Source: an uncultured Chthonomonadaceae bacterium
GTDB lineage: Bacteria; Armatimonadota; Chthonomonadetes; Chthonomonadales; Chthonomonadaceae
Assembly: GCA_963835065.1 (NCBI GenBank)
Contig: CAWIEK010000051.1
Coordinates: 32,001-96,000 of the forward strand
DNA: 64,000 bases
Reading direction: 5' to 3'
Every line of letters begins with the position of its first letter. Positions within the stretch are counted from its first letter, which is position 1. The notes under the pieces are model-generated. The model made no database searches. It was not told where the DNA came from and was given only the letters and a program-made list of their open reading frames with translations. The translations under genes were made by a program, and so were the position numbers. Positions 229 through 25,332 of this stretch are shown here, piece after piece.

Positions 229-2616
229 TCAGTAGGAGATTAGTACCCGAATATCCCCCTGCGTCCGACAGATGACGGTAAGCCGCGTACCGTGAAATTG
301 AAAGGGAGCCGGGCTGCCGTTGATTGTTACGGCGAGGGGAACGCGCCCATTCTGCGCTTCGCCGACAAGCGTCCAGGCAACGGGTTTATGGCGCGGCGTA
401 TCAAAATAAAAATCCAATTGAACGTGTTTGCCGTCCGGGGAAACGCTGCCGTCACGCAGCGCGGCAGGCTGCCATTCCGTCAGCAGCAGGGGCGCGGACC
501 GGGAAAGCAGTTCCGCCAGCACATTCGGCCCGATCCAGGCATTGTTACGGTTTGCCTGCGCCATGTCAACGTAATTCCACAGGGTGGATGTGGGTTCGCC
601 AAGCAGGGCGCGGGCAAAAATATGCGGAAAAGTCACATAAATCGAGTTGCCTTTGTAGGTTGTGGCGAAGGGATACACAACGTCGCCGCGATACCATTCC
701 GGGAAACTGCGCGCGTACTCGGCTTCGTAGTCCGCCAACGCCGTCCCGCCAAACGCGCGGAGAACCGCGTACAATTCCGGCAGTACGCCATCTCCCGAAA
801 GGACATTGGTGGTATCCCAGGGGTCATCTTCGCCCAGGCGGGCGCGGGTGAAGCCTTCCATTTCGTGGAAGCCCAACACCACGCTTTTCGGCCCGATCAG
901 GCCGGCTTTACGCGCCCAGGCGGTGTACAGGAAGCGGGCGACAGTGGGCACGGCGATACGCGCGGCTTGTGCGGCAAAGTATTCTATGCCCGCTTTGTCC
1001 TTCAGGGCGCGGGCCATTTTCAGGCAGGCCAGCGTACCGCAGTAGGTGGCCGCCATCGGGTCGCCGGTTCCCGTGCTGTAGCCGTGATCGGCGTTTACAA
1101 CCGTCATCCACGCCCAGTCGTCGCCCCGGTCAAAATAGCGGTAGATACGCCGGACGTCGTTCCAATGCGCGCGGACAAACGCCCAATCTCCCGTATACTG
1201 CGCGTATTTGTACAGCCCGTAAAGCGGCAGGGCATCGCCCCAATCCAGATCGTAGCGGCGCTGATTCGGCCCGGCAATAAAATACGTCCATAGATAGGAT
1301 TGTCCGGTGAACGGCTCGGTTTCCGTTTTCCACGGGCGGGGCGGCGGTTTTGCGGTATCGGAGGAAGTTTCCGGTGTGGAAGCGCGGGGCAAGGCTGCTT
1401 TCGCCGGAGCGCGCGGCGGGGAAGGCTGCGGCAGATAGGGCGGCAGCGTAAAGGCAAGCGGCAAATAACGCTGCCAGGCGGCCTGCGTTTCGGCCCGGCG
1501 TTGTGGCGTCAAGTAGGCCCATGCCATTTGCGCGTTCGCCATGCCCGCGTAGCCCAGGTCAACCGCATTGTTCGCCCAATCGCCGCCCAGATGCCCCACC
1601 AGTTCATTCAGCAGGCGGGTATTGCCCTGCGCATTAGAGGCCGCTTCCGCTTCCACGCGAACATAGCCGCGCTCGTCTGTGGGCGGCACGGGCAGGGTAT
1701 ATCGCGCCGTATTACCCCGCATATAGGTAAAGTCGCCCCATTTTGTCGGGCAGTCCGCCGTGACCGTTTCGCCTGTGATGGCAGCCGGGTAGCCATGCGC
1801 GCGGGCAAACGCGAGAACGGGCGGCAGGGGCGCGATAGGGAGGCCCTCCGAAGTGGGAGCGTAGGTTTCCGTGAAGGTAACGGTCTGTCCATCCGGCGCA
1901 AGGCGATGGCTGCTGTAGTCGCGCGTGGGAATGGAAATAGCGGCCCATCGGCGGGCTTCGGCGCGAAGGTGATTTTCTTCCGCCGCGCTTGCAGCCGGAG
2001 CCAACTCGCGCAGGCCAAGCGGCGTTACAAACCGCGCGTCGCCAATCGCTTCCTGCCCTTCCACCACAATCTCGGTTTTATCGGGCAGGCAGGCCAGTGT
2101 TTTGACGCGAGGCTCAAATCCCCTGCGGAACGCGATCAGCAGGGGCATGGACGCCCGATCTTCGCGCCGTATCAGCAGGCCGGAACACTGTTCTGATTCC
2201 GGCGCAGGCGGCAGGTAAGCCATTGTAACCGGGAGGGGGTTGCCCTTCTCATCGGTAACGCGCAGCCGCATCCGCCTGCCATACGTCGCGCCAAAGCCGG
2301 GATACAGCAGGGTATAGCGCAACTGCGTTGGCTCATCCGCGCTTCCACCGGACAAACGGAGCGTTTTGCCGGTTGTGCCGATGGCGATAACCTTTGCCCG
2401 CGCCCTGCCCTCCCCATACGTTATTTGCATCGGCGTGGCCGTCGGCGGCGCGGCAAAACCATGCGGCGTCACGTTCAGCGTCAGCAGACCATCGTCATTG
2501 AAGCGACCAAAGCGACCAAATTGGCTCCTGTCGCTTGCAGGCGCGGCCTGCGCGCGCAGGACTACAGGGAGTGCAAAGAACAGCGAAAATGTCAGCAGGC
2601 GCAGGAATAATCGCAT
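229..2616 (-). CDS. Secreted hypothetical protein, possible (alpha/alpha)-barrel glycoside hydrolase-like
   Basis: Long ORF. Likely start MRLFLRLLTFSLFFALPVVLRAQA (signal peptide) at 2616; the ORF track extends to 2751. Aromatic-rich helical segment LYGLYKYAQYTGDWAFVRAHWNDVRR is typical of six-hairpin glycosidases. Confidence 0.6.
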   Translation of the reverse strand: MRLFLRLLTFSLFFALPVVLRAQAAPASDRSQFGRFGRFNDDGLLTLNVTPHGFAAPPTATPMQITYGEGRARAKVIAIGTTGKTLRLSGGSADEPTQLRYTLLYPGFGATYGRRMRLRVTDEKGNPLPVTMAYLPPAPESEQCSGLLIRREDRASMPLLIAFRRGFEPRVKTLACLPDKTEIVVEGQEAIGDARFVTPLGLRELAPAASAAEENHLRAEARRWAAISIPTRDYSSHRLAPDGQTVTFTETYAPTSEGLPIAPLPPVLAFARAHGYPAAITGETVTADCPTKWGDFTYMRGNTARYTLPVPPTDERGYVRVEAEAASNAQGNTRLLNELVGHLGGDWANNAVDLGYAGMANAQMAWAYLTPQRRAETQAAWQRYLPLAFTLPPYLPQPSPPRAPAKAALPRASTPETSSDTAKPPPRPWKTETEPFTGQSYLWTYFIAGPNQRRYDLDWGDALPLYGLYKYAQYTGDWAFVRAHWNDVRRIYRYFDRGDDWAWMTVVNADHGYSTGTGDPMAATYCGTLACLKMARALKDKAGIEYFAAQAARIAVPTVARFLYTAWARKAGLIGPKSVVLGFHEMEGFTRARLGEDDPWDTTNVLSGDGVLPELYAVLRAFGGTALADYEAEYARSFPEWYRGDVVYPFATTYKGNSIYVTFPHIFARALLGEPTSTLWNYVDMAQANRNNAWIGPNVLAELLSRSAPLLLTEWQPAALRDGSVSPDGKHVQLDFYFDTPRHKPVAWTLVGEAQNGRVPLAVTINGSPAPFQFHGTRLTVICRTQGDIRVLISY

Positions 2617-2839
2617 AGGTTGTCCCATCGCATTTTGGAGAATGTTCACAGCGGCAGCGGGCATTTCCGCATCCATGTCTTCATAAGGGGATGAACCTCT
2701 GTTGGAGTACCGGCGCATCATCGGTTCATCGAAGCACAGTTTAATTTCCATAGGTTGCTATACATGAGGCAATGACGTGTCATTTCGGCCCTGATTTACG
2801 CAGAATTCTGACAATGATTTTGTAACCTCTTGTCTGGGC

Positions 2840-3375
2840 TATCTTCAAAGGCGTCAAACCGGATTTGTTAGCATGGTTTATGTCCGCGTGATGCGCTAAC
2901 AGAAGTGTTACGCAGGATTGGCGATTTGCAGCGACTGCTTGTATCAAGGGCGTATCGCCATAATCTGAATCTTGCGCATTGGGGTTAGCCCATCAGTTAC
3001 AAGTTAAGGAAATTTCGAGATTGTCAAGGGCTATTTTCACTGATTTTCAGCTCGTTAAAAGCCGTGTCACAACATCCGAAGTGGCTGTTTGTCCGCTAAA
3101 TGTTTCTTGCGATGGGCTGCCTGCTCGCTAATAGGCTTGGCAGGCAGCAGAACATCGGCAGAAAAATAGTGAAAATAACCCTTGACAAATCTTAAAAGTG
3201 CTTAACTTGTAACTGATGGGGTTTATCTTCAAAGGCGTCAAACCGGATTTGTTAGCATGGTTTATGTCCGCATGATGCGCTAACAGAAGTGTTACGCAGG
3301 ATTGGCGATTTGCAGCGACTGCTTGTATCAAGGGCGTATCGCCATAATCTGAATCTTGCACATTGGGGTCAGCCC
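2840..3375. repeat. 152-bp direct repeat (2840-2991 and 3224-3375) flanking the MITE
   Basis: Base-by-base comparison shows 3 mismatches. Confidence 0.95.
2989..3220. mobile_element. 232-bp MITE (non-autonomous element)
   Basis: Perfect 20-bp terminal inverted repeats CCCATCAGTTACAAGTTAAG (2989-3008 / 3201-3220), extending imperfectly to about 53 bp. No transposase. Flanked by a long direct repeat. Confidence 0.85.
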
Positions 3376-4265
3376 TATGATTAAGCAATATTTTTACCAA
3401 CTTACAATCGCCTGAATAAGCGGCATAGAGAAGGGGCGTTGCTCCTGTTGAATCTTTTGCATCTATGGCAAAACCATTGCTCAACAGCAGACTAACCATT
3501 GCGGCATCATGTTTTTTGACAGCATGATGTAAAGCCAGACGGTCTGCTCCATTAACCTGTTTTGCCTTTCGGAGTTTGTTAATAAGTATCTTCGCAACTT
3601 GTAAACGCCGATACTCTACAGCGTACCGTAAGGGTGTGCCCAAACTTGGCTCGTTTCGGCGTGGGTCCTCCCCTTTATCGAGCATTGCTTTCACTTTGAC
3701 AGTATCCCCGCGTCGAATGGCGCGGTAGAATGGGCTTTCCACTATAGGAGCAAGAGGGTCTTGAGGCAGTTGGAAACCATAACCAATGTAAGCCCAACCC
3801 ATCATGTTACAAGTGAGAATTGCGCCGATTAGCAAGTAATGCTTAGAACAGCATATTTTTTGATCGCACAAGTATAAACTAGCATGAATAACTTACCATA
3901 TCCCATAGAAGTCTCCCTGATGAATAGCGCCCTGGTCCAATGCCTGGCTCGGGGATATGAGAATTCGGATTCGCATAGATGCCTGCTTTTAATGGGTTCA
4001 GCCACAATACCGTTTTAGCAGGCCAACCGTCTCCGCCTGCGGGCAATCCAATCAAAGCAGGAAGAAACTGTGCTTTGTTTTGACTATTTAGTTGTCAATG
4101 TGCTGGTCAGCAAGCATTATGTGTGAGTGTCAAGCATCACAATGTAGCATTGGTTTGTTGCGCGTTCAATATAATGTATTCTGATTGTGGATGTGGCATG
4201 TGCTGTCTCCCATTGGTATCAATGGCCTCTCGGCACACTTGCATACTGCTACGCCGCATTTCGTT

Positions 4266-4775
4266 CTAATGCGAAGTCAGAAGGTTCCTAATCCCTGCAT
4301 CCACTTTGTAGTCCGTAAGCTGCATCCTGCATAAATTCTGCGTGTGTTTACCCATATAGGGAAAGATGCGGTCAAAGTGACTTGCGTAAGTGGTAAGTAA
4401 CGCCTCGCAAACAGTGACACTGATCAGATTTCGAACTTGGAAATCTGAATTGCTGGCTAACTCTTCTATCCAAGCCATAATATCGGCCAAGCGATTTGCC
4501 TGGCTAGGGTTGGCTGTAAGTGTAATCAGGAACGGGATAAGCAGGTTCTCCATTACAAGGGTCAACCCCGGACTTGACTGAACAGTTTCACTCAATCCAT
4601 GCAGTTGGTTAATTTCGTGCATATCAATGCTGTCTTGTTCAGTCCAGAGCAAGTGTGCGCTATTGTTCTCGCGCAGCATTTCTTCATAGTTCTCCCGAAT
4701 TTCCGGTACGGCTATGAGTAAGCGTGGGAGAACGTTATTGTATTCTCGCATGTCTCCTTGTGCCATATTTGACAT
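4266..4775 (-). CDS. Hypothetical protein, possible toxin immunity protein
   Basis: 169-aa AT-rich helical ORF. Its ATG overlaps the TAA of an upstream reading frame (TAATG, 4773-4777). Confidence 0.6.
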   Translation of the reverse strand: MSNMAQGDMREYNNVLPRLLIAVPEIRENYEEMLRENNSAHLLWTEQDSIDMHEINQLHGLSETVQSSPGLTLVMENLLIPFLITLTANPSQANRLADIMAWIEELASNSDFQVRNLISVTVCEALLTTYASHFDRIFPYMGKHTQNLCRMQLTDYKVDAGIRNLLTSH

Positions 4776-5422
4776 TACTTTCCTTGCAGCGCGCGCTGTA
4801 AGTCATCGTGCTGTGATGTGTACCCTGTGTTCTCTATAGCAGCAAGTCTCCAACGCGCTACGCCCGTTCTGATTGTGTATCCCCATAGAGAAATCCAAAG
4901 CCATTATAAAAATGTATTATAATCAGTTCCGGTGGTAAAATTGCCGCTGCTGTCGGCGATGGTGCTGTCGGCGATGGTGTTGAACGTTTTAACGACGGCG
5001 CGGTATTTCGCTCCCGCAGTGGCAAAGATGTCGAAGTTGTTCAGCGCGTTCGCGCCATTGATGGTCACGTTCATTTTGCGGCTGCCGGCTGCGTTAAACG
5101 CCAACTCCGCAAAATGAAGCCGCACCACATACCAACCGTTTGCGGTAAAGCCTGGAAGCGTGTAGACAAGAAGAGAGGAAGCCGTGTTCTGCGTCTGATA
5201 GATGGACGCGGGCGCGGCATTGGCAACGCCCTTCACGTCAATGCCCGTCGTTGTGGAAACCGGCGAACTGCTGCTGTAATAAGCGTCCGAGCGAAACGTT
5301 CCGACTGTGACCCCGCCGCCGCAATCCACGCGCAGAGGCGCGTCGGCATGAGCAAAGCGAACGCCGGACAAACACAGCGTCCAAACAGCAAACAGCAGGG
5401 CAATCAGCAGACGGCGGGCCAT
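4775..5422 (-). pseudogene. Signal peptide + malectin-domain gene, truncated and fused in frame (through one TAA) to an AT-rich C-terminal fragment
   Basis: Malectin motifs VDCGG, IYQTQ, YVVRLHFAE, GSRKMNVTING, NFDIFA. 15-bp tandem duplication (TIADS x2). Stop at 4904-4906, then 42 further in-frame codons to TAA 4775-4777. Confidence 0.7.
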
Positions 5423-6407: not shown

Positions 6408-9400
6408 ATGAATTTCCGAAACCATCCCCGTGTTCGCCGCATCACCACCTGTGTCTCGACCCTGTCGCTTGTCGCGTACTCCACGTCCCTGCTTTCGCCC
6501 ACCTTCGCGCAGGAGCCGGGTACGCCCATGCCCGTACAAAACACGCCCGAAAAAGCGAAAAAGCAGGACGAACTGGATCGGCAGAAAAAGCCCGCGCCGC
6601 CGCCCGCGCCCGGCAACCCGGCGGTGATTATTGACCCCAACAACGGCAGCGGCAACAACACGCGCGACTTCAACCGCGACGGCACGCCCCGGATTCCGAA
6701 CCATACGCGGCGTGACTATGGCGACCATCAGCGCACCCCGGAAGACACGCGCATGGGAACGGATGTCAAGAACCTGCCCCTGTATGGCTATATATTTTTC
6801 GCCGACGCCCGCCGCAACATCGAAGCCCGGCGCAATGGCCTGATCAGCGCGCTTAACGGCAACAATCAAAATGCAAACGGTTCGTCCCGCAATGACCGCA
6901 ATTTCACGAACGGCAATGCGGACGGCAGCCGCCGCAATACCAACAACCGCAACGGCAATGATGGCGACAATATACCCACTCGCCGCGCCGATGGTTCCGA
7001 TGCCAACAGCGGCAACCAAAACGGACAGGACAATCGGGATGGGCGCAACGGCAACGGGCGCAGCAGTGACGGGCGCAACGCTGATGGACGTAACACTGAC
7101 GGACGCAATAGTGATGGGCGCAATAGTGATGGGCGCGGCAATCAGGATGGGCGCGACAACGCCGATCCGAACGACGATTCCCGCAACGATGACAACGTGA
7201 CCGATGCGCAGCGGCGGCGCGATGCCCGCCGCCGGGATGCCGATTCTACGGACGCCGCGCTGGAAGACGACAACGGGGTACAGAGCCGCTTGCAGGGGTT
7301 TCCCGCGCGCAACAGTGGCGACACCCGCAATAGCGGACGCGCGGACGATAATGGCAATGACCGCAGCGGAACGGACCGGAACAGCAGCGGCAACCGTAAT
7401 CGTAGCAACACAGGCAGCAACAGCACGGACCGCAACGGCCAGAACAACTCGCAAAACAACCCGAACTACAACTCACAGTATAATCCGAACAATTCCAACA
7501 ATTCCTACAACACGCCCGTGCAGCGCTCCACTGTCAGCGGCTTCGACGGCATCATTGACCCGATCACGCAGTTGACCAACAACATCATCGCCTCCCCGCC
7601 CGCCACGTACCAGTTGTCCGGCGGGGATGAAGTGGTGATTCACATTACCACGCCCAAACTGAACCCGATTGACATGACCCGCACCGTAGACACGCTGGGC
7701 AATCTCGATATGGGCGAAATGGGGCGCGTGGTCGTGCGCGGCAAAACGCTGGACCAGATTGAAAGCGATGTTCAAAAACGCGCCACGCAGTATTACAAGG
7801 GCGCGCAGGTGTCCCTCAACCTCAAGCAACTGCGCACCATTTCTGTGACCGTGCAGGGCGAGGCCGTGCAGCCGGGCACGTATGTGGTTCCTTCCGTCAT
7901 TTCCGCCTTCAACATGCTGAATGCGGTTGGCGGGCCGACGGAAGACGGCTCGCTGCGCGACATCAAGGTGATGCGGCAGGGCAAAGAGATCAAAAGCCTG
8001 GACTTTTACAAGTTTATGAAGGGCGACGGGCAGGAAGACGTGATCCTGCGCGCGGGCGACATTTTGGTGATTTCGCCGACTGGCAACCGCGTTGCCCTGA
8101 CCGGCGAAGTTCGGCATCCTGCGCAGTACGAATTGAAGGACAACGAAAGCCTGCAGGATGCGCTGAAATATGCGGGCGGCGTGAAAGCGTCGGGCGTGGA
8201 TCAAATCGTACAACTCAACACGCTGGAACCGGGCCAGAACCGCGTTTTGAAAAACATCAATCTGCGGGATAAAGCGGAAGTCGCGGCTATCAAGCTGTAC
8301 GACGGCGACAGCGTGGAAATCCATTCCGTGCGCCAGATCATTGATAACAAGGTGCATGTGGCGGGAGCCATTTCCCAACCCGGCGATTACGCCATGACGC
8401 CGGGTATGAAAGTGGCCGACCTGCTGCGCCTGGCCCGCAACCCGATCAGCGAAGCCTATCTGGGCCGCGCCGCCCTGAAGCGCTGGAACGGCGACAACAC
8501 GACCACGCTGATCCCCATTGACCTTGCCAAAGCGATTGAAAACGACCCGCAAAACAACATTCCCCTGATGAAGTGGGACAGCCTTGAAATCTATTCGCGC
8601 TCCGAAGCCGCATTTGTCGGGACGCGCAAGATCGAAGTGCGCGGAGCCGTGCAGCGCGAAGGCGTGTACGAGTACAGCCAGAACATGCGCGTACTGGATA
8701 TTCTGCTGCGCGCGGGCGGCGCATTGCCCAATGCGGAGCGCATCGAACTGATACATCAGCACGGCGATGGCACGTACAAACTGGAATCCATCAACGTGGC
8801 GGATGTGGCGCACGGCGACCCGGCCAAAAACGTGCTTGTGGAAGACAACGATATTGTAGCCGTGTACAAGAACACGGAAGCGCAGTTTATCGCTTCGCAT
8901 CAGGTGCGCGTTGAGGGCGAAGTGGTGACGCCGGGCTTTTATCCCCGCGCCGAAGGCATGCGCCTGACCGACGCCCTGCGGCTTTCGGGTTGGTTCCGGC
9001 CCGGCGCGCATCCGAGCGTAAAAATCGCCCACGCGCGCCGTTCGGTAGACTCCAAAGACGCGGCGGGCAACATTGTTTCCGTCGCCTTCGACACGCAGTT
9101 CCGGTGCGACCCGCAGGACGACCTGCGTTTGGAAGACGGCGACGTGATCGCTGTACAGGGCACGGGCGGCATTGACGAGCGCCCCGCTGTGGTTTATGTG
9201 AAGGGCGCGGTCAACACGCCCGGTCCCATCTTCCTCAAGAACAAAAACGTGCGTCTGAGCGAAGCCATTGCCGAAGCGGGCGGCCTGCGCCCCGAAGCCT
9301 TCCCCGAAGGCGCGGAGTTCAACCGCGATCCCGCCAAACTGTCGTCCAAAACGCAGAAGGAAATGGCGACAACAATCGGCAAACTGACCAATCTGCTCAA

Positions 9401-10052
9401 CGATCAGGATTACCTGGGGAAACTTGCTCAATCGGATATCGAGCGTTTGAAGGCGCTGCAGCAAACCAGTGACAGCGGCAGTCTGCTGGGCGGCCAGCAA
9501 AGCACCAGCGCGCTCAACAATGCGGCGGGGGTTGCCATCGCTTCCAAGCTGTCGGAACACCAACTTGTGACGCCGCCGCGCCGCCTGACCGAAACAGAAC
9601 TGGACCCGAGCGGTAACATCGCTGTAAACCTGCCTGCCGCGCTGGAGGAATCGAAAAAGGGCGGACGGCGCGACGACGACATTCTGCTGGTAGACGGCGA
9701 CACCATCACGGTTCCCGAAAAACCGACGACGGTTCAGGTGATCGGCGCGGTCATCCATCAGCGCGGCGTGCTGTTCACGCCGGGCAAGTCGCTGGAATTC
9801 TATATCGAGCAGTCGGGCGGCTATGCCCCGGATGCCGCGCCGATGAAGACCATCGAAATCATTCGCGCGGGCGGAGGCATTATTCCCGCCAACAAGGTCA
9901 AGGATTTACGTCCCGGCGACGTGATTCTGGTTCCGACCAAAGTGCTGGCGGCGAAAATCGCGCAGCATCACGACGGCATCGGCGATTTCTTCAAGTCCAT
10001 CACCAACTCGGCGATTATCTTCCGGCTGGCAACAGGAGTGTTTGGAATCTAA
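6408..10052 (+). CDS. Polysaccharide export protein with multiple SLBB domains (Wza/KpsD-like) and an N/D/G/R-rich low-complexity insert
   Basis: Signal peptide; LPLYGYIFF; poly_export YQLSGGDEV; repeated VxVxGxVxxPG SLBB motifs; RBS GGAG. Confidence 0.9.
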   Translation: MNFRNHPRVRRITTCVSTLSLVAYSTSLLSPTFAQEPGTPMPVQNTPEKAKKQDELDRQKKPAPPPAPGNPAVIIDPNNGSGNNTRDFNRDGTPRIPNHTRRDYGDHQRTPEDTRMGTDVKNLPLYGYIFFADARRNIEARRNGLISALNGNNQNANGSSRNDRNFTNGNADGSRRNTNNRNGNDGDNIPTRRADGSDANSGNQNGQDNRDGRNGNGRSSDGRNADGRNTDGRNSDGRNSDGRGNQDGRDNADPNDDSRNDDNVTDAQRRRDARRRDADSTDAALEDDNGVQSRLQGFPARNSGDTRNSGRADDNGNDRSGTDRNSSGNRNRSNTGSNSTDRNGQNNSQNNPNYNSQYNPNNSNNSYNTPVQRSTVSGFDGIIDPITQLTNNIIASPPATYQLSGGDEVVIHITTPKLNPIDMTRTVDTLGNLDMGEMGRVVVRGKTLDQIESDVQKRATQYYKGAQVSLNLKQLRTISVTVQGEAVQPGTYVVPSVISAFNMLNAVGGPTEDGSLRDIKVMRQGKEIKSLDFYKFMKGDGQEDVILRAGDILVISPTGNRVALTGEVRHPAQYELKDNESLQDALKYAGGVKASGVDQIVQLNTLEPGQNRVLKNINLRDKAEVAAIKLYDGDSVEIHSVRQIIDNKVHVAGAISQPGDYAMTPGMKVADLLRLARNPISEAYLGRAALKRWNGDNTTTLIPIDLAKAIENDPQNNIPLMKWDSLEIYSRSEAAFVGTRKIEVRGAVQREGVYEYSQNMRVLDILLRAGGALPNAERIELIHQHGDGTYKLESINVADVAHGDPAKNVLVEDNDIVAVYKNTEAQFIASHQVRVEGEVVTPGFYPRAEGMRLTDALRLSGWFRPGAHPSVKIAHARRSVDSKDAAGNIVSVAFDTQFRCDPQDDLRLEDGDVIAVQGTGGIDERPAVVYVKGAVNTPGPIFLKNKNVRLSEAIAEAGGLRPEAFPEGAEFNRDPAKLSSKTQKEMATTIGKLTNLLNDQDYLGKLAQSDIERLKALQQTSDSGSLLGGQQSTSALNNAAGVAIASKLSEHQLVTPPRRLTETELDPSGNIAVNLPAALEESKKGGRRDDDILLVDGDTITVPEKPTTVQVIGAVIHQRGVLFTPGKSLEFYIEQSGGYAPDAAPMKTIEIIRAGGGIIPANKVKDLRPGDVILVPTKVLAAKIAQHHDGIGDFFKSITNSAIIFRLATGVFGI

Positions 10053-23228: not shown

Positions 23229-23840
23229 ATGACGAACTCCAAGCCACAGACAAAGCACAAATACTCTGTTATCAAGCTCAAAGACGCGATGCAGTTGCTG
23301 GGACGCGAAACGCTTACGCTCTGGCAGCCGAACGCGGTTCCGCGCCCGCCGAGCGATATTCTGCTGGCGAATTTACAGCGTCTCAACTCATTCGATTTGA
23401 GGTCTACCGAGCAGGCGAAGACCCTGCTAATTGATGCGCTGTTTGCCGAGGTCGTCCCGCACCATCCCAACTTGAAGGTGTGGAAAGCGGCTGCGCTGGA
23501 CACGGACACGTTGACGGGCGTGGCGGATTACCTGATTGCGCCCTTTCGCGCCTATCTGGAAACGCCTTTGTTGTGCGCTGTGGAAGCCAAGCGGGATGAT
23601 TTCGAGCGCAGACAGGCGCAGTGCCTCGCGGAAATGTACGCCTGCGCGTGGAACAATCGGCAGGCGGGCCATGACGTGGATGTGTACGGCATTGTCAGTA
23701 ATGGGCAGGTGTGGCTATTCTACAAATGGGAACGGGGGAGTGACGTGTACGAAACCGAACAGGTCGCCATCAGTGATATGCCGCATCTGCTCGGCCTGCT
23801 GGATTATGTCTGCGGCGAGTGCGCCCGCCTCGTTCCATAA
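23229..23840 (+). CDS. Restriction-endonuclease-like family protein, paralog of 16569
   Basis: TEQAKTLLI, GVADY, VEAKRDDF, QCLAEMYA, YGIVSNG motifs. Confidence 0.75.
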   Translation: MTNSKPQTKHKYSVIKLKDAMQLLGRETLTLWQPNAVPRPPSDILLANLQRLNSFDLRSTEQAKTLLIDALFAEVVPHHPNLKVWKAAALDTDTLTGVADYLIAPFRAYLETPLLCAVEAKRDDFERRQAQCLAEMYACAWNNRQAGHDVDVYGIVSNGQVWLFYKWERGSDVYETEQVAISDMPHLLGLLDYVCGECARLVP

Positions 23841-23950
23841 GCAACATCGACCAATCAGACAGAAAGAAGCATGGGGCGGAAGAAGGATTACATTCTGATG
23901 TTGAGGGGCTTGCCTGAACTGCTCTTATTGCGCAGAACTGCTATCTATCT

Positions 23951-24205
23951 TTGAAAGGCACTGACATGCCGCCGTACTCTAATGACGAAGTTGAACTTGA
24001 TTATATTCTTGATTGCTTCAAAGCCGCAATAAAATGTCTATTGTTACATGACGTTTACCTCTTAAAGCGGGGGCAAGCGGGTAACGTCTTTGCACTTGCA
24101 ACGCGGGCATATTACGCCGTCAGGCCAGCGCATATTCTTTACAAGTTCAAGGCAGATTGTCGGATCGCTGAAATAACGAACCGCTTCCATGAGGCTTTCG
24201 AGTAA
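23951..24205 (+). CDS. Hypothetical protein or gene remnant
   Basis: AT-rich 84-aa ORF; no recognised motif. Confidence 0.3.
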   Translation: MKGTDMPPYSNDEVELDYILDCFKAAIKCLLLHDVYLLKRGQAGNVFALATRAYYAVRPAHILYKFKADCRIAEITNRFHEAFE

Positions 24206-24368
24206 AGTGTTTGTGGTTTCCATGAGAGTTTTTGACCGTCCTGAACAAGAACAAGTTGCCTGATACTCTTGTTACTACAACCGGACGGGCAAAACAGCAA
24301 GACTTTTGCTTAGTCAAGTATCTTTTTTGTGGGCAGGTATATAATTGAGGAAAACTCTCTGAAACTAA

Positions 24369-25332
24369 GAATCTATCTCAAAACGAAAGTGGCTCTGCAA
24401 CGGGCAAGCTGACCTCTTGCTTTAATACGTGCAACTTGCGGAACCACAGGAGGGCACAGGCGAGTTTGCAGGTTGCCAGGTAGTTGCTGGGCTTTTTGTC
24501 CCACCGGATGAGGATGCCGCGCCAACGCGACAGCCAAGCAAACGTGCGCTCCACCACCCAACGCCGCGCCGGATGCATTTTCTCGCCCGCTTCATCTTTC
24601 TTTTCTTCGCCAATGCGGCGAATGTGGGGCGTATAGCCTGCTTTCTTAGCGGCTTCTTCCCCACGCGGATTGTCATAGCCTTTGTCCAGGCACAGGTTTT
24701 GAGGTTCTTCGGGCGTGGGCTGCGGACGGTACACCACCACCGCGCTGATCGTGGCCGCGAGCAGATGCGCGTCATTGGTGTTGGCGCTGCTGATACAAAT
24801 GCCCGTCGGCCCGCCGTCGCCTTCCACTAAAAGGCTCTTTTTGACGCCTTGCTTCCCACGATCCGTGGGATTGGGACCGACACAGGCGTCGTCTTGTGCC
24901 CCTTTTTAGGCACACCGCGCGCTTTGCTCAGGCAGGCATCGGCAGATTGCCAGTCCCACTCTACGCCGCCCAAGAAGTCGCAATTGCGCAGAAGGACCGC
25001 CCACAACTTGCCGAACAAGTCCAGCTTCTCCCACCGCTGCAAGGTGCGGTGGATGCTGGCATTGTCGCCAAACTCCTTGGGGAGTTGGTTCCATTGGCAG
25101 CCGGTACGCGCTCGGTAGATAATGCCGTTGAGAGCAAGACGGGCATCAATGCGCTTGCGTCCGCGTTTGCAAGGGGGATCGTACTGGTTGATCAACGCCT
25201 GAATGTGTTCCCATAACTCGTCGGGAACACGCCAGATCGTCGGTAAAGAGGGTGTCTGCGCCATAAGTCACTCCAAAAAAGTAGTCGTAACTTTATCATC
25301 GGCAGGCCACTCGCTTATTTTGAGATAGATTC
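24369..25332 (-). mobile_element. IS5-family insertion sequence (964 bp)
   Basis: 15-bp TIR GAATCTATCTCAAAA; TAA target duplication (24366-24368 / 25333-25335); split transposase. Confidence 0.92.
24378..25264 (-). CDS. IS5 transposase, two ORFs joined by a -1 frameshift
   Basis: RTGCQWNQLP (orfA); LDKGYD and RWVVERTFAWL (orfB); slippery AAAAAGGGG near 24900. Confidence 0.9.

Follow-up and report, generated by a model that had tools for sequence, protein, structure and literature searches.

The window analyzed here is a 64,000-nt stretch of DNA (C51:32001-96000) from a MAG of 8.0 Mb in 71 contigs, which is 91.9% complete with 3.7% contamination. Close to its left end lies an ankyrin gene on the minus strand that is interrupted by a short element flanked by long direct repeats. 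A repeat search of the window places these repeats at 2840-2991 and 3224-3375, each 152 nt long and 98% identical with 3 mismatches, and also finds an inverted repeat whose 63-nt arms (2989-3051 and 3158-3220) are 81% complementary. Pairwise alignment of the two copies, referred to as A and B, puts the mismatches at 2888/3272, 2976/3360, and 2986/3370, all three of which are transitions. The repeats are separated by 232 nt, and BLAST finds a perfect 20-nt terminal inverted match there. As single-stranded DNA, the 244 nt that span the element fold at -61.8 kcal/mol, compared with -26.2 +/- 3.6 kcal/mol for shuffled sequence (n=200; z = -10). An earlier note on this DNA had described 152-bp copies with three mismatches around an element with terminal inverted repeats (TIRs) in an ankyrin gene; both the repeats and the hairpin were found again, and the combination of repeat, hairpin, and interrupted gene is far above chance level. 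The parts of the locus are as follows.

2780..2839, minus strand: displaced native 3' end of the ankyrin gene, its last 19 codons and stop, within the open reading frame (ORF) 2780..2947
2840..2991, plus strand: direct repeat copy A, made up of 142 nt of ankyrin coding sequence, T1, and one base equal by chance to the first base of the MITE
2982..2990, plus strand: T1, the left 9-nt target copy GGGTTAGCC, recognized by its score on the family target matrix
2991..3218, no strand assigned: the MITE, CATCAG...CTGATG, 228 nt without a transposase, recognized by its hairpin and by ends common to the family copies
3128..3871, minus strand: the present ankyrin ORF of 247 codons, from its translation and a Pfam Ank_2 match (4e-28)
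3219..3223, plus strand: J, the bases GGGTT, identical to the opening 5 nt of the 9-nt target copy expected on the right and followed by the novel joint to copy B
3224..3375, plus strand: direct repeat copy B, made up of the 142 nt, T2 (GGGTCAGCC, 3366-3374), and one base

Read from left to right, the order is upstream DNA, 142 nt, GGGTTAGCC, the MITE, GGGTT, the same 142 nt, GGGTCAGCC, and downstream DNA. The extra material at the locus therefore amounts to 147 nt, or 49 codons, and the repeat measures 152 rather than 147 nt because the 9-mer and one base common to the MITE and the downstream DNA are counted as well. The bounds first given for the element were a length of 232 bp with TIRs of 20 bp. 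The perfect 20-nt terminal match is present, but the element proper is the 228 nt at 2991-3218. Comparison with 100 family ends identifies the outermost CC and GG of the 20-bp match as flank bases and places the "gtt" at 3221-3223 outside the element; the perfect inverted repeat looks 20 nt long because the CC and GG of the palindromic target are included in it.

The native ankyrin protein would be 235 residues long. After a simple insertion at GGGTTAGCC, native sequence would run only to residue 169 and 66 residues (ankyrin repeat 5 and the C-terminal cap) would be lost; with the 147-nt duplication this loss shrinks from 66 codons to 19. The present ORF (3128..3871) consists of 216 native codons, running from 3871 down to 3224, and a 31-codon tail from J and the MITE, with its stop inside the MITE. 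As 147 nt is 49 codons, the MITE tail keeps the frame that is expected after a simple insertion. Copy B is continuous with the remainder of the gene and is co-translated with it, and copy A has been severed from the gene by the MITE. The native C-terminus survives, as had been claimed, and is found beyond copy A in the ORF 2780..2947 (minus strand, 55 aa), which joins the coding part of copy A to the native end, matches Pfam Ank_4 (1.9e-7), and starts at a TTG in copy A. This TTG is the sole start, the ORF lies behind a TGA in the MITE terminus, and to judge from the reading frames copy A and the native end are probably silent. It had also been proposed that such insertions expand repeat proteins. 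At this locus the MITE between the copies carries a stop in the frame of the gene, so only one copy is translated with it and the proposal is not borne out.

A search for other homologues of the ankyrin gene returned only the window's own 225-aa form as a close match, the best other of 33 protein matches being 42% identical. The DNA of window 2700-3900 has no match in 40 relatives, two of them of the same genus, and the empty allele that had been suggested as a check was found neither by DNA among these relatives nor by protein among the 33 matches. The gene sits in an island of 43-48% GC (window 2750-4900) with 57-64% GC on both sides, and this island is probably acquired DNA. A DUF7674 gene (4266-4775, minus strand; PF24722, 1.2e-10) shares the island. 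Elsewhere in the window, at 6408-10052, there is a 1214-aa ORF whose N-terminal ~350 residues are rich in Asn, Asp, Arg, Gly, and Ser, and which is overlapped on the opposite strand by a long low-complexity ORF.

The identity of the element follows from its ends. Each end has a subterminal TTGACA box ~30 nt inward, and alignment of both ends with a solo end on contig C24 of the same genome defines a conserved bipartite terminus: the TTGACA box, 12-13 variable bases, and the terminal 18-19 bases ending in CTGATG. The terminal 18-19 nt and the box match full IS copies of ~1.4 kb (L013, L037, and L008) as well as other MITEs. The interior bears no relation to the IS body, the sole ORF within it is a 50-aa chance frame, and Rfam has no match at E <= 1 across window 2600-3600. 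Short derivatives of 216-311 nt that consist of the ends only are found in several genomes and metagenomes, and their interiors are unrelated both to one another and to that of the window MITE. The autonomous IS is ~1.4 kb long with the ends CATCAG...CTGATG; in L037, two inverted 18-mers at a distance of 1431 nt enclose a transposase gene with a frameshift. Intact transposases are present in L008 (424 aa) and L013 (449 aa), and both score above the cut-off of 115 bits on the NCBIfam IS4 family model NF033592 (161.7 and 159 bits, respectively) and above the Pfam cut-off on DDE_Tnp_1 (PF01609; 1.6e-14 for one and 4.4e-18 for the other). The Y-(2)-R-(3)-E-(6)-K (YREK) motif, as defined in the part of De Palmenaer et al. 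(2008; PMC2266710) used here, is complete in both translations. Taken together, the IS4-model transposases, the common ends, and the short derivatives retaining only those ends make the window element a MITE of an IS4-family IS, an assignment in which the transposase evidence comes from the autonomous relatives, the window MITE itself having no gene. The original description of a non-autonomous TIR element interrupting the ankyrin gene is thus borne out, as the ends are those of an autonomous IS and a transposase gene is absent.

Both ends of the MITE (3168-3218 and 2991-3041) and the C24 solo end (L004 1501-1543) also contain an outward-pointing pair of boxes, TTGACA and, 15 nt further on, TAACTT. 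A promoter scan reported no site in the inverted repeats at its spacing of 16-18 nt, the spacing here being 15 nt. From its sequence, TTGACA/TAACTT could be an outward-facing promoter or simply a subterminal transposase-binding box. In full IS copies, the stop codon of the transposase falls within the terminal repeat.

In the 8.0-Mb genome, the full window MITE is present as one copy, accompanied by a 43-nt solo end at C24:24577-24619; the search for other copies that the earlier note had asked for returns nothing beyond these two. An internal 21-mer of the MITE has 0 matches in metagenome contigs. The terminal 18-mer is more widely distributed, with 41 loci in a scan of one genome per species and 91 stretches in metagenome contigs. 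The loci are mostly in MAGs of Chloroflexota, with a few in Gammaproteobacteria and one in a Chthonomonadales MAG, and many of them lie 60-125 nt from a contig end. Multi-copy insertion sequences are usually found at contig ends. The IS group is far commoner in Chloroflexota than elsewhere, and this abundance suggests that it has moved between phyla.

An autonomous transposase with the same ends, the other search proposed for this element, does exist in intact form in other genomes. Among 40 relatives it is found only in G020, a genome of the same GTDB family as the window genome (locus L013), but the assembled window genome has no intact transposase of the group and holds only relics. There are two of these, both internally deleted, at C23:1-440 and C24 ~24116-24619. 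Their fragments include C23:195-437, with 80% identity to residues 264-344, and C24:24116-24238; Pfam gives no match for the two N-terminal pieces of the C24 relic. The window MITE is now probably immobile. The relic transposase on C24 is interrupted by a different palindromic element of ~145 nt (C24:24217-24376; L004 1141-1300), which gives 73 BLAST hit lines across many contigs of the window genome at 75-96% identity and is a second, truly multi-copy MITE-like family of this genome. Between two IS4 relic pieces, at C24 ~23680-23870 (L004 600-800), there is also a fragment that by eye resembles a TnpB/OrfB-type C-terminal zinc-finger; this 39-aa piece has no Pfam match. With such a fragment between IS4 relic pieces, the C24 site reads as a scrapyard of several mobile elements.

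The target duplications of the family were assessed on 33 complete copies elsewhere, in which the 9-nt flanks are identical in 13 and match at 8/9 positions in 3. Among the 12 genome copies with both flanks, 7 match at 9/9, 2 at 8/9, none at 7/9, and 3 at <=6/9. The metagenome set began as 23 distinct complete copies, of which 2 were left out for a missing flank; the remaining 21 match at 9/9 in 6 cases, 8/9 in 1, 7/9 in 1, and <=6/9 in 13. The MITE-sized copies (216-311 nt) with flanks number 8, with 9/9 in 6, 8/9 in 1, and 2/9 in 1. The mismatched 9-mer pairs, counted in 16 of the 33 copies, are probably chimeric contigs or recombined copies, and for those from short metagenome contigs the simplest account is a chimeric join spanning a multi-copy element. 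None of the 33 complete copies is flanked by a long direct repeat that abuts its ends; 6 of the metagenome copies had a flank of <140 nt, so a long repeat may have been missed in those. The DNA around one 311-nt MITE (L029, CAYWXS010000196.1) is rich in repeats and has several direct ones, 38-76 nt long, that are not flush with the element, among them one of 57 nt at 100% identity.

Across 100 unique outer flanks, position 4 is T in 90 and position 6 is A in 92; position 7 is G in 67, position 3 is C in 53, and position 5 is A or T in 83. The family target is a symmetric NNYTWARNN and the duplication length is 9 bp. On the resulting target matrix, for which random 9-mers have a median of -5.5 and a 95th percentile of 1.5, the left 9-mer of the window, GGGTTAGCC, scores 6.9-7.6 bits and stands above 81-88% of the 100 family flanks. 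The right 9-mer, GGGTTTATC, scores -1.45, below 92% of the family flanks, because its position 6 is T. The right flank matches the left 9-mer at the first 5/9 positions only (GGGTT), after which copy B begins. The odds that five filler bases would agree by chance with the beginning of the left 9-mer are about 1 in 1024, and GGGTT is therefore taken for what is left of a normal 9-bp duplication. IS10/Tn10 likewise prefers a symmetric 9-bp target, and its precise excision between the duplications is stimulated by inverted repeats.

By its ends and its duplication length, the group can be set beside subgroups of the IS4 family. Table 1 of De Palmenaer et al. (2008; PMC2266710) gives the IS231 subgroup the end signature CAT-------AA--TAA--- and a duplication of 10-12 bp. 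In a comparison confined to these two traits, the ends of the element fit the signature at 8/8 fixed positions, with a duplication of 9 bp versus 10-12. Like IS231 as described in the part of that paper used here, the group encodes its DDE transposase in a single ORF, with the YREK motif complete, and has ends starting with CAT with AA at 11-12 and TAA at 15-17, a preference for certain insertion sites, and, as with MIC231, short derivatives that retain the ends only (PMC2266710). It differs from IS231 there in its shorter duplication and in its hosts, which are Chloroflexota and Armatimonadota rather than Bacillus. The 9-bp duplication is shared with the IS10 subgroup in the same table, although the ends of that subgroup start with CT and those here with CA (PMC2266710); this likeness, too, is one of ends and duplication set side by side. 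More broadly, IS4-family duplications are about one helical turn in length (7-13 bp), and the 9 nt seen in 16/33 copies (8-9/9) fall within that range. With its IS231-type ends, 9-bp duplication, NNYTWARNN target, and MITEs of its own, this is a newly defined group of the IS4 family.

We assign a probability of about 0.7 to the joint claim that the element is an IS4-family MITE, that it inserted with a normal 9-bp duplication, and that the long repeat arose secondarily. The 9-bp rule elsewhere in the family, the strong left target, and the GGGTT remnant together make a 9-bp insertion and a separate templated duplication of 147 nt the most likely history. For the duplication itself we put forward a single-event repair route, tentatively and at somewhat short of even odds. 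A transposase resembling the intact 449-aa protein from the MAG of the same GTDB family would have mobilized the MITE in trans, and the MITE would have inserted by cut-and-paste into Ala-Asn-Pro codons where the fourth ankyrin repeat ends, cutting off the last 66 residues. A break or a replication stall may then have occurred after the GGGTT of the right target copy, beside the hairpin-prone MITE, and the free 3' end may have paired with the AGCCC of the left target copy (2987-2991). Synthesis of 147 nt, made up of GGGTT and 142 upstream nt, followed by rejoining, would leave one MITE, an additional copy of 49 codons, and an ORF in which repeat 5 is restored and just the final 19 residues are missing. 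The mispairing in the proposed priming step is the one to which precise excision between target duplications is generally attributed. Rejoining would have taken place at a site where the alignment reveals no evident microhomology, and Ku (PF02735) was not found in the 91.9%-complete genome. The duplication is a single instance: no second MITE copy, empty allele, or simple-insertion allele was found in the genome, its relatives, or metagenome contigs. A eukaryotic process offers a partial likeness. At breaks beside DNA transposons in rice, copies of 1-123 bp of nearby sequence are inserted as "filler" by synthesis-dependent strand annealing, according to the part of Roffler and Wicker (2015; PMC4423477) drawn on here. 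In both settings nearby sequence is copied at a break at the side of a transposon; the rice events follow excision and the element is gone, whereas here, in a bacterium, the MITE is present, the copy is 147 nt, and priming from the other target copy is our proposal.

The differences between the copies bear on how and when the duplication arose. Position 5 of the 9-mer is T in T1 and J and C in T2, and the copies differ at 3/151 positions. These differences should count against a recent intramolecular copy, which would be identical, and an old copy should have been lost by recombination between the 152-nt repeats. They fit either a second allele, ~2% diverged, as the template or the two arms of a two-strain bubble in the MAG consensus. 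Several other histories were rejected. One tandem duplication alone cannot yield a single MITE between two copies. An in-frame tandem duplication predating the insertion would leave identical 9-mers on both sides of the MITE, and they are not identical. Recombination of two MITE insertions 147 nt apart would need a target in the native sequence where the repeat begins, which is unusable as one, and gives the wrong right flank. Unequal crossover between ankyrin repeats does not account for a segment of 147 nt, or 1.5 repeats, whose breakpoints have no common repeat register.

The secondary-duplication reading has two variants. In one, a normal insertion is followed by tandem duplication of a ~375-nt segment (142 nt, target copy, MITE, and GGGTT), after which one MITE is lost by precise excision. 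This yields exactly the order of parts seen, and both tandem duplication and hairpin-stimulated precise excision are known classes of event; it nevertheless calls for two rare events where one is enough, no intermediate is seen, and the 3 mismatches are left as unexplained as they are by the repair route. We regard this history as unlikely. The other variant, a form of homology-facilitated illegitimate recombination, has DNA of an empty allele, contributed by a sister chromatid or a ~2%-diverged strain, joined after the MITE-GGGTT, with the joint at the start of the 142-nt segment and a homologous crossover further right. Here one event explains the 3 differences between the copies and the C in T2 versus T in T1 and J, and the 43-48% GC island within 57-64% GC DNA is consistent with exchanged DNA. 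Against it, no second allele was found in the searches of protein matches and of the 40 relatives described above, and a joint within the common GGG would produce a sequence other than the one observed; this origin, too, seems improbable.

The earlier note had assigned the element to a long-duplication family, in which case the transposase would have cut ~150 nt apart and the whole repeat would be the target duplication. There is precedent for this in IS1634 and IS1549, which have variable direct repeats of 8-514 bp according to the relevant part of De Palmenaer et al. (PMC2266710) and whose distantly related DDE transposases were once classed in IS4, and the window does contain a long direct repeat beside its element. 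The relatives, however, have IS4 transposases with a complete YREK motif, whereas in the IS1634 family, as characterized in the same part of that paper, the R is mostly absent, the N3-C1 spacer is long, and duplications of 5-6 bp are listed (PMC2266710). The profile matches of the transposases at E <= 0.01 include no IS1634-named model, the best curated model being IS4. The NCBIfam library is presumed to include such a model. Nor does the repeat lie flush with the right end of the MITE, from which it is separated by 5 nt that match the left 9-mer. Short, fixed duplications at other copies had been named beforehand as a sign that the long repeat is unrelated to insertion, and 9-nt duplications at 8-9/9 are what 16/33 copies show, with none of the 33 carrying a long flush repeat. 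A long-stagger origin is accordingly very improbable. In the case of an assembly artefact, reads of strains with and without the MITE would have been merged to create the duplication or at least its 3 differences. The MAG is in 71 contigs with 3.7% contamination, a look-up of sequencing runs for window 2500-3800 listed none, the 152-nt repeat is close to a short-read length, and the arms of a two-strain bubble could be assigned to two passes through the repeat. Yet the joint between MITE-GGGTT and copy B has no overlap of k-mer length elsewhere in the locus, and a de Bruijn graph would need reads containing that joint; the site is also ~35 kb inside a 128-kb contig, and a random chimera is not expected to coincide with base 5 of a target duplication. 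Assembly error is unlikely.

Overall, what had first been observed at this locus, a non-autonomous TIR element within an interrupted ankyrin gene, stands, and its interpretation as a member of a long-duplication family whose insertions could expand repeat proteins is not supported. This removes a notable claim, that of a MITE family with ~150-bp target duplications. The misreading arose because the palindromic target lengthens the apparent inverted repeat by 2-3 bases per end and so masks the true remnant of the 9-bp duplication. In its place there is an IS4-family group, with MITEs of its own, that is common to Chloroflexota and a Chthonomonadales-related lineage.

It is conceivable, if improbable, that the 147-nt copy is a selected bypass, in which priming from the target duplication re-made 49 codons that cover ankyrin repeat 5 and the first part of repeat 6. 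No description of such a route of partial reversion in bacteria was found in the literature searched. If the joint is real, the locus would be a rare natural bacterial snapshot of a templated duplication that starts inside a transposon target duplication, and it would bear on hairpin-provoked local rearrangements and on the partial reversion of insertion mutations. Were the bypass true as well, the target duplications made by hairpin MITEs would be built-in primers, both for precise excision and for a templated re-duplication that rescues genes.
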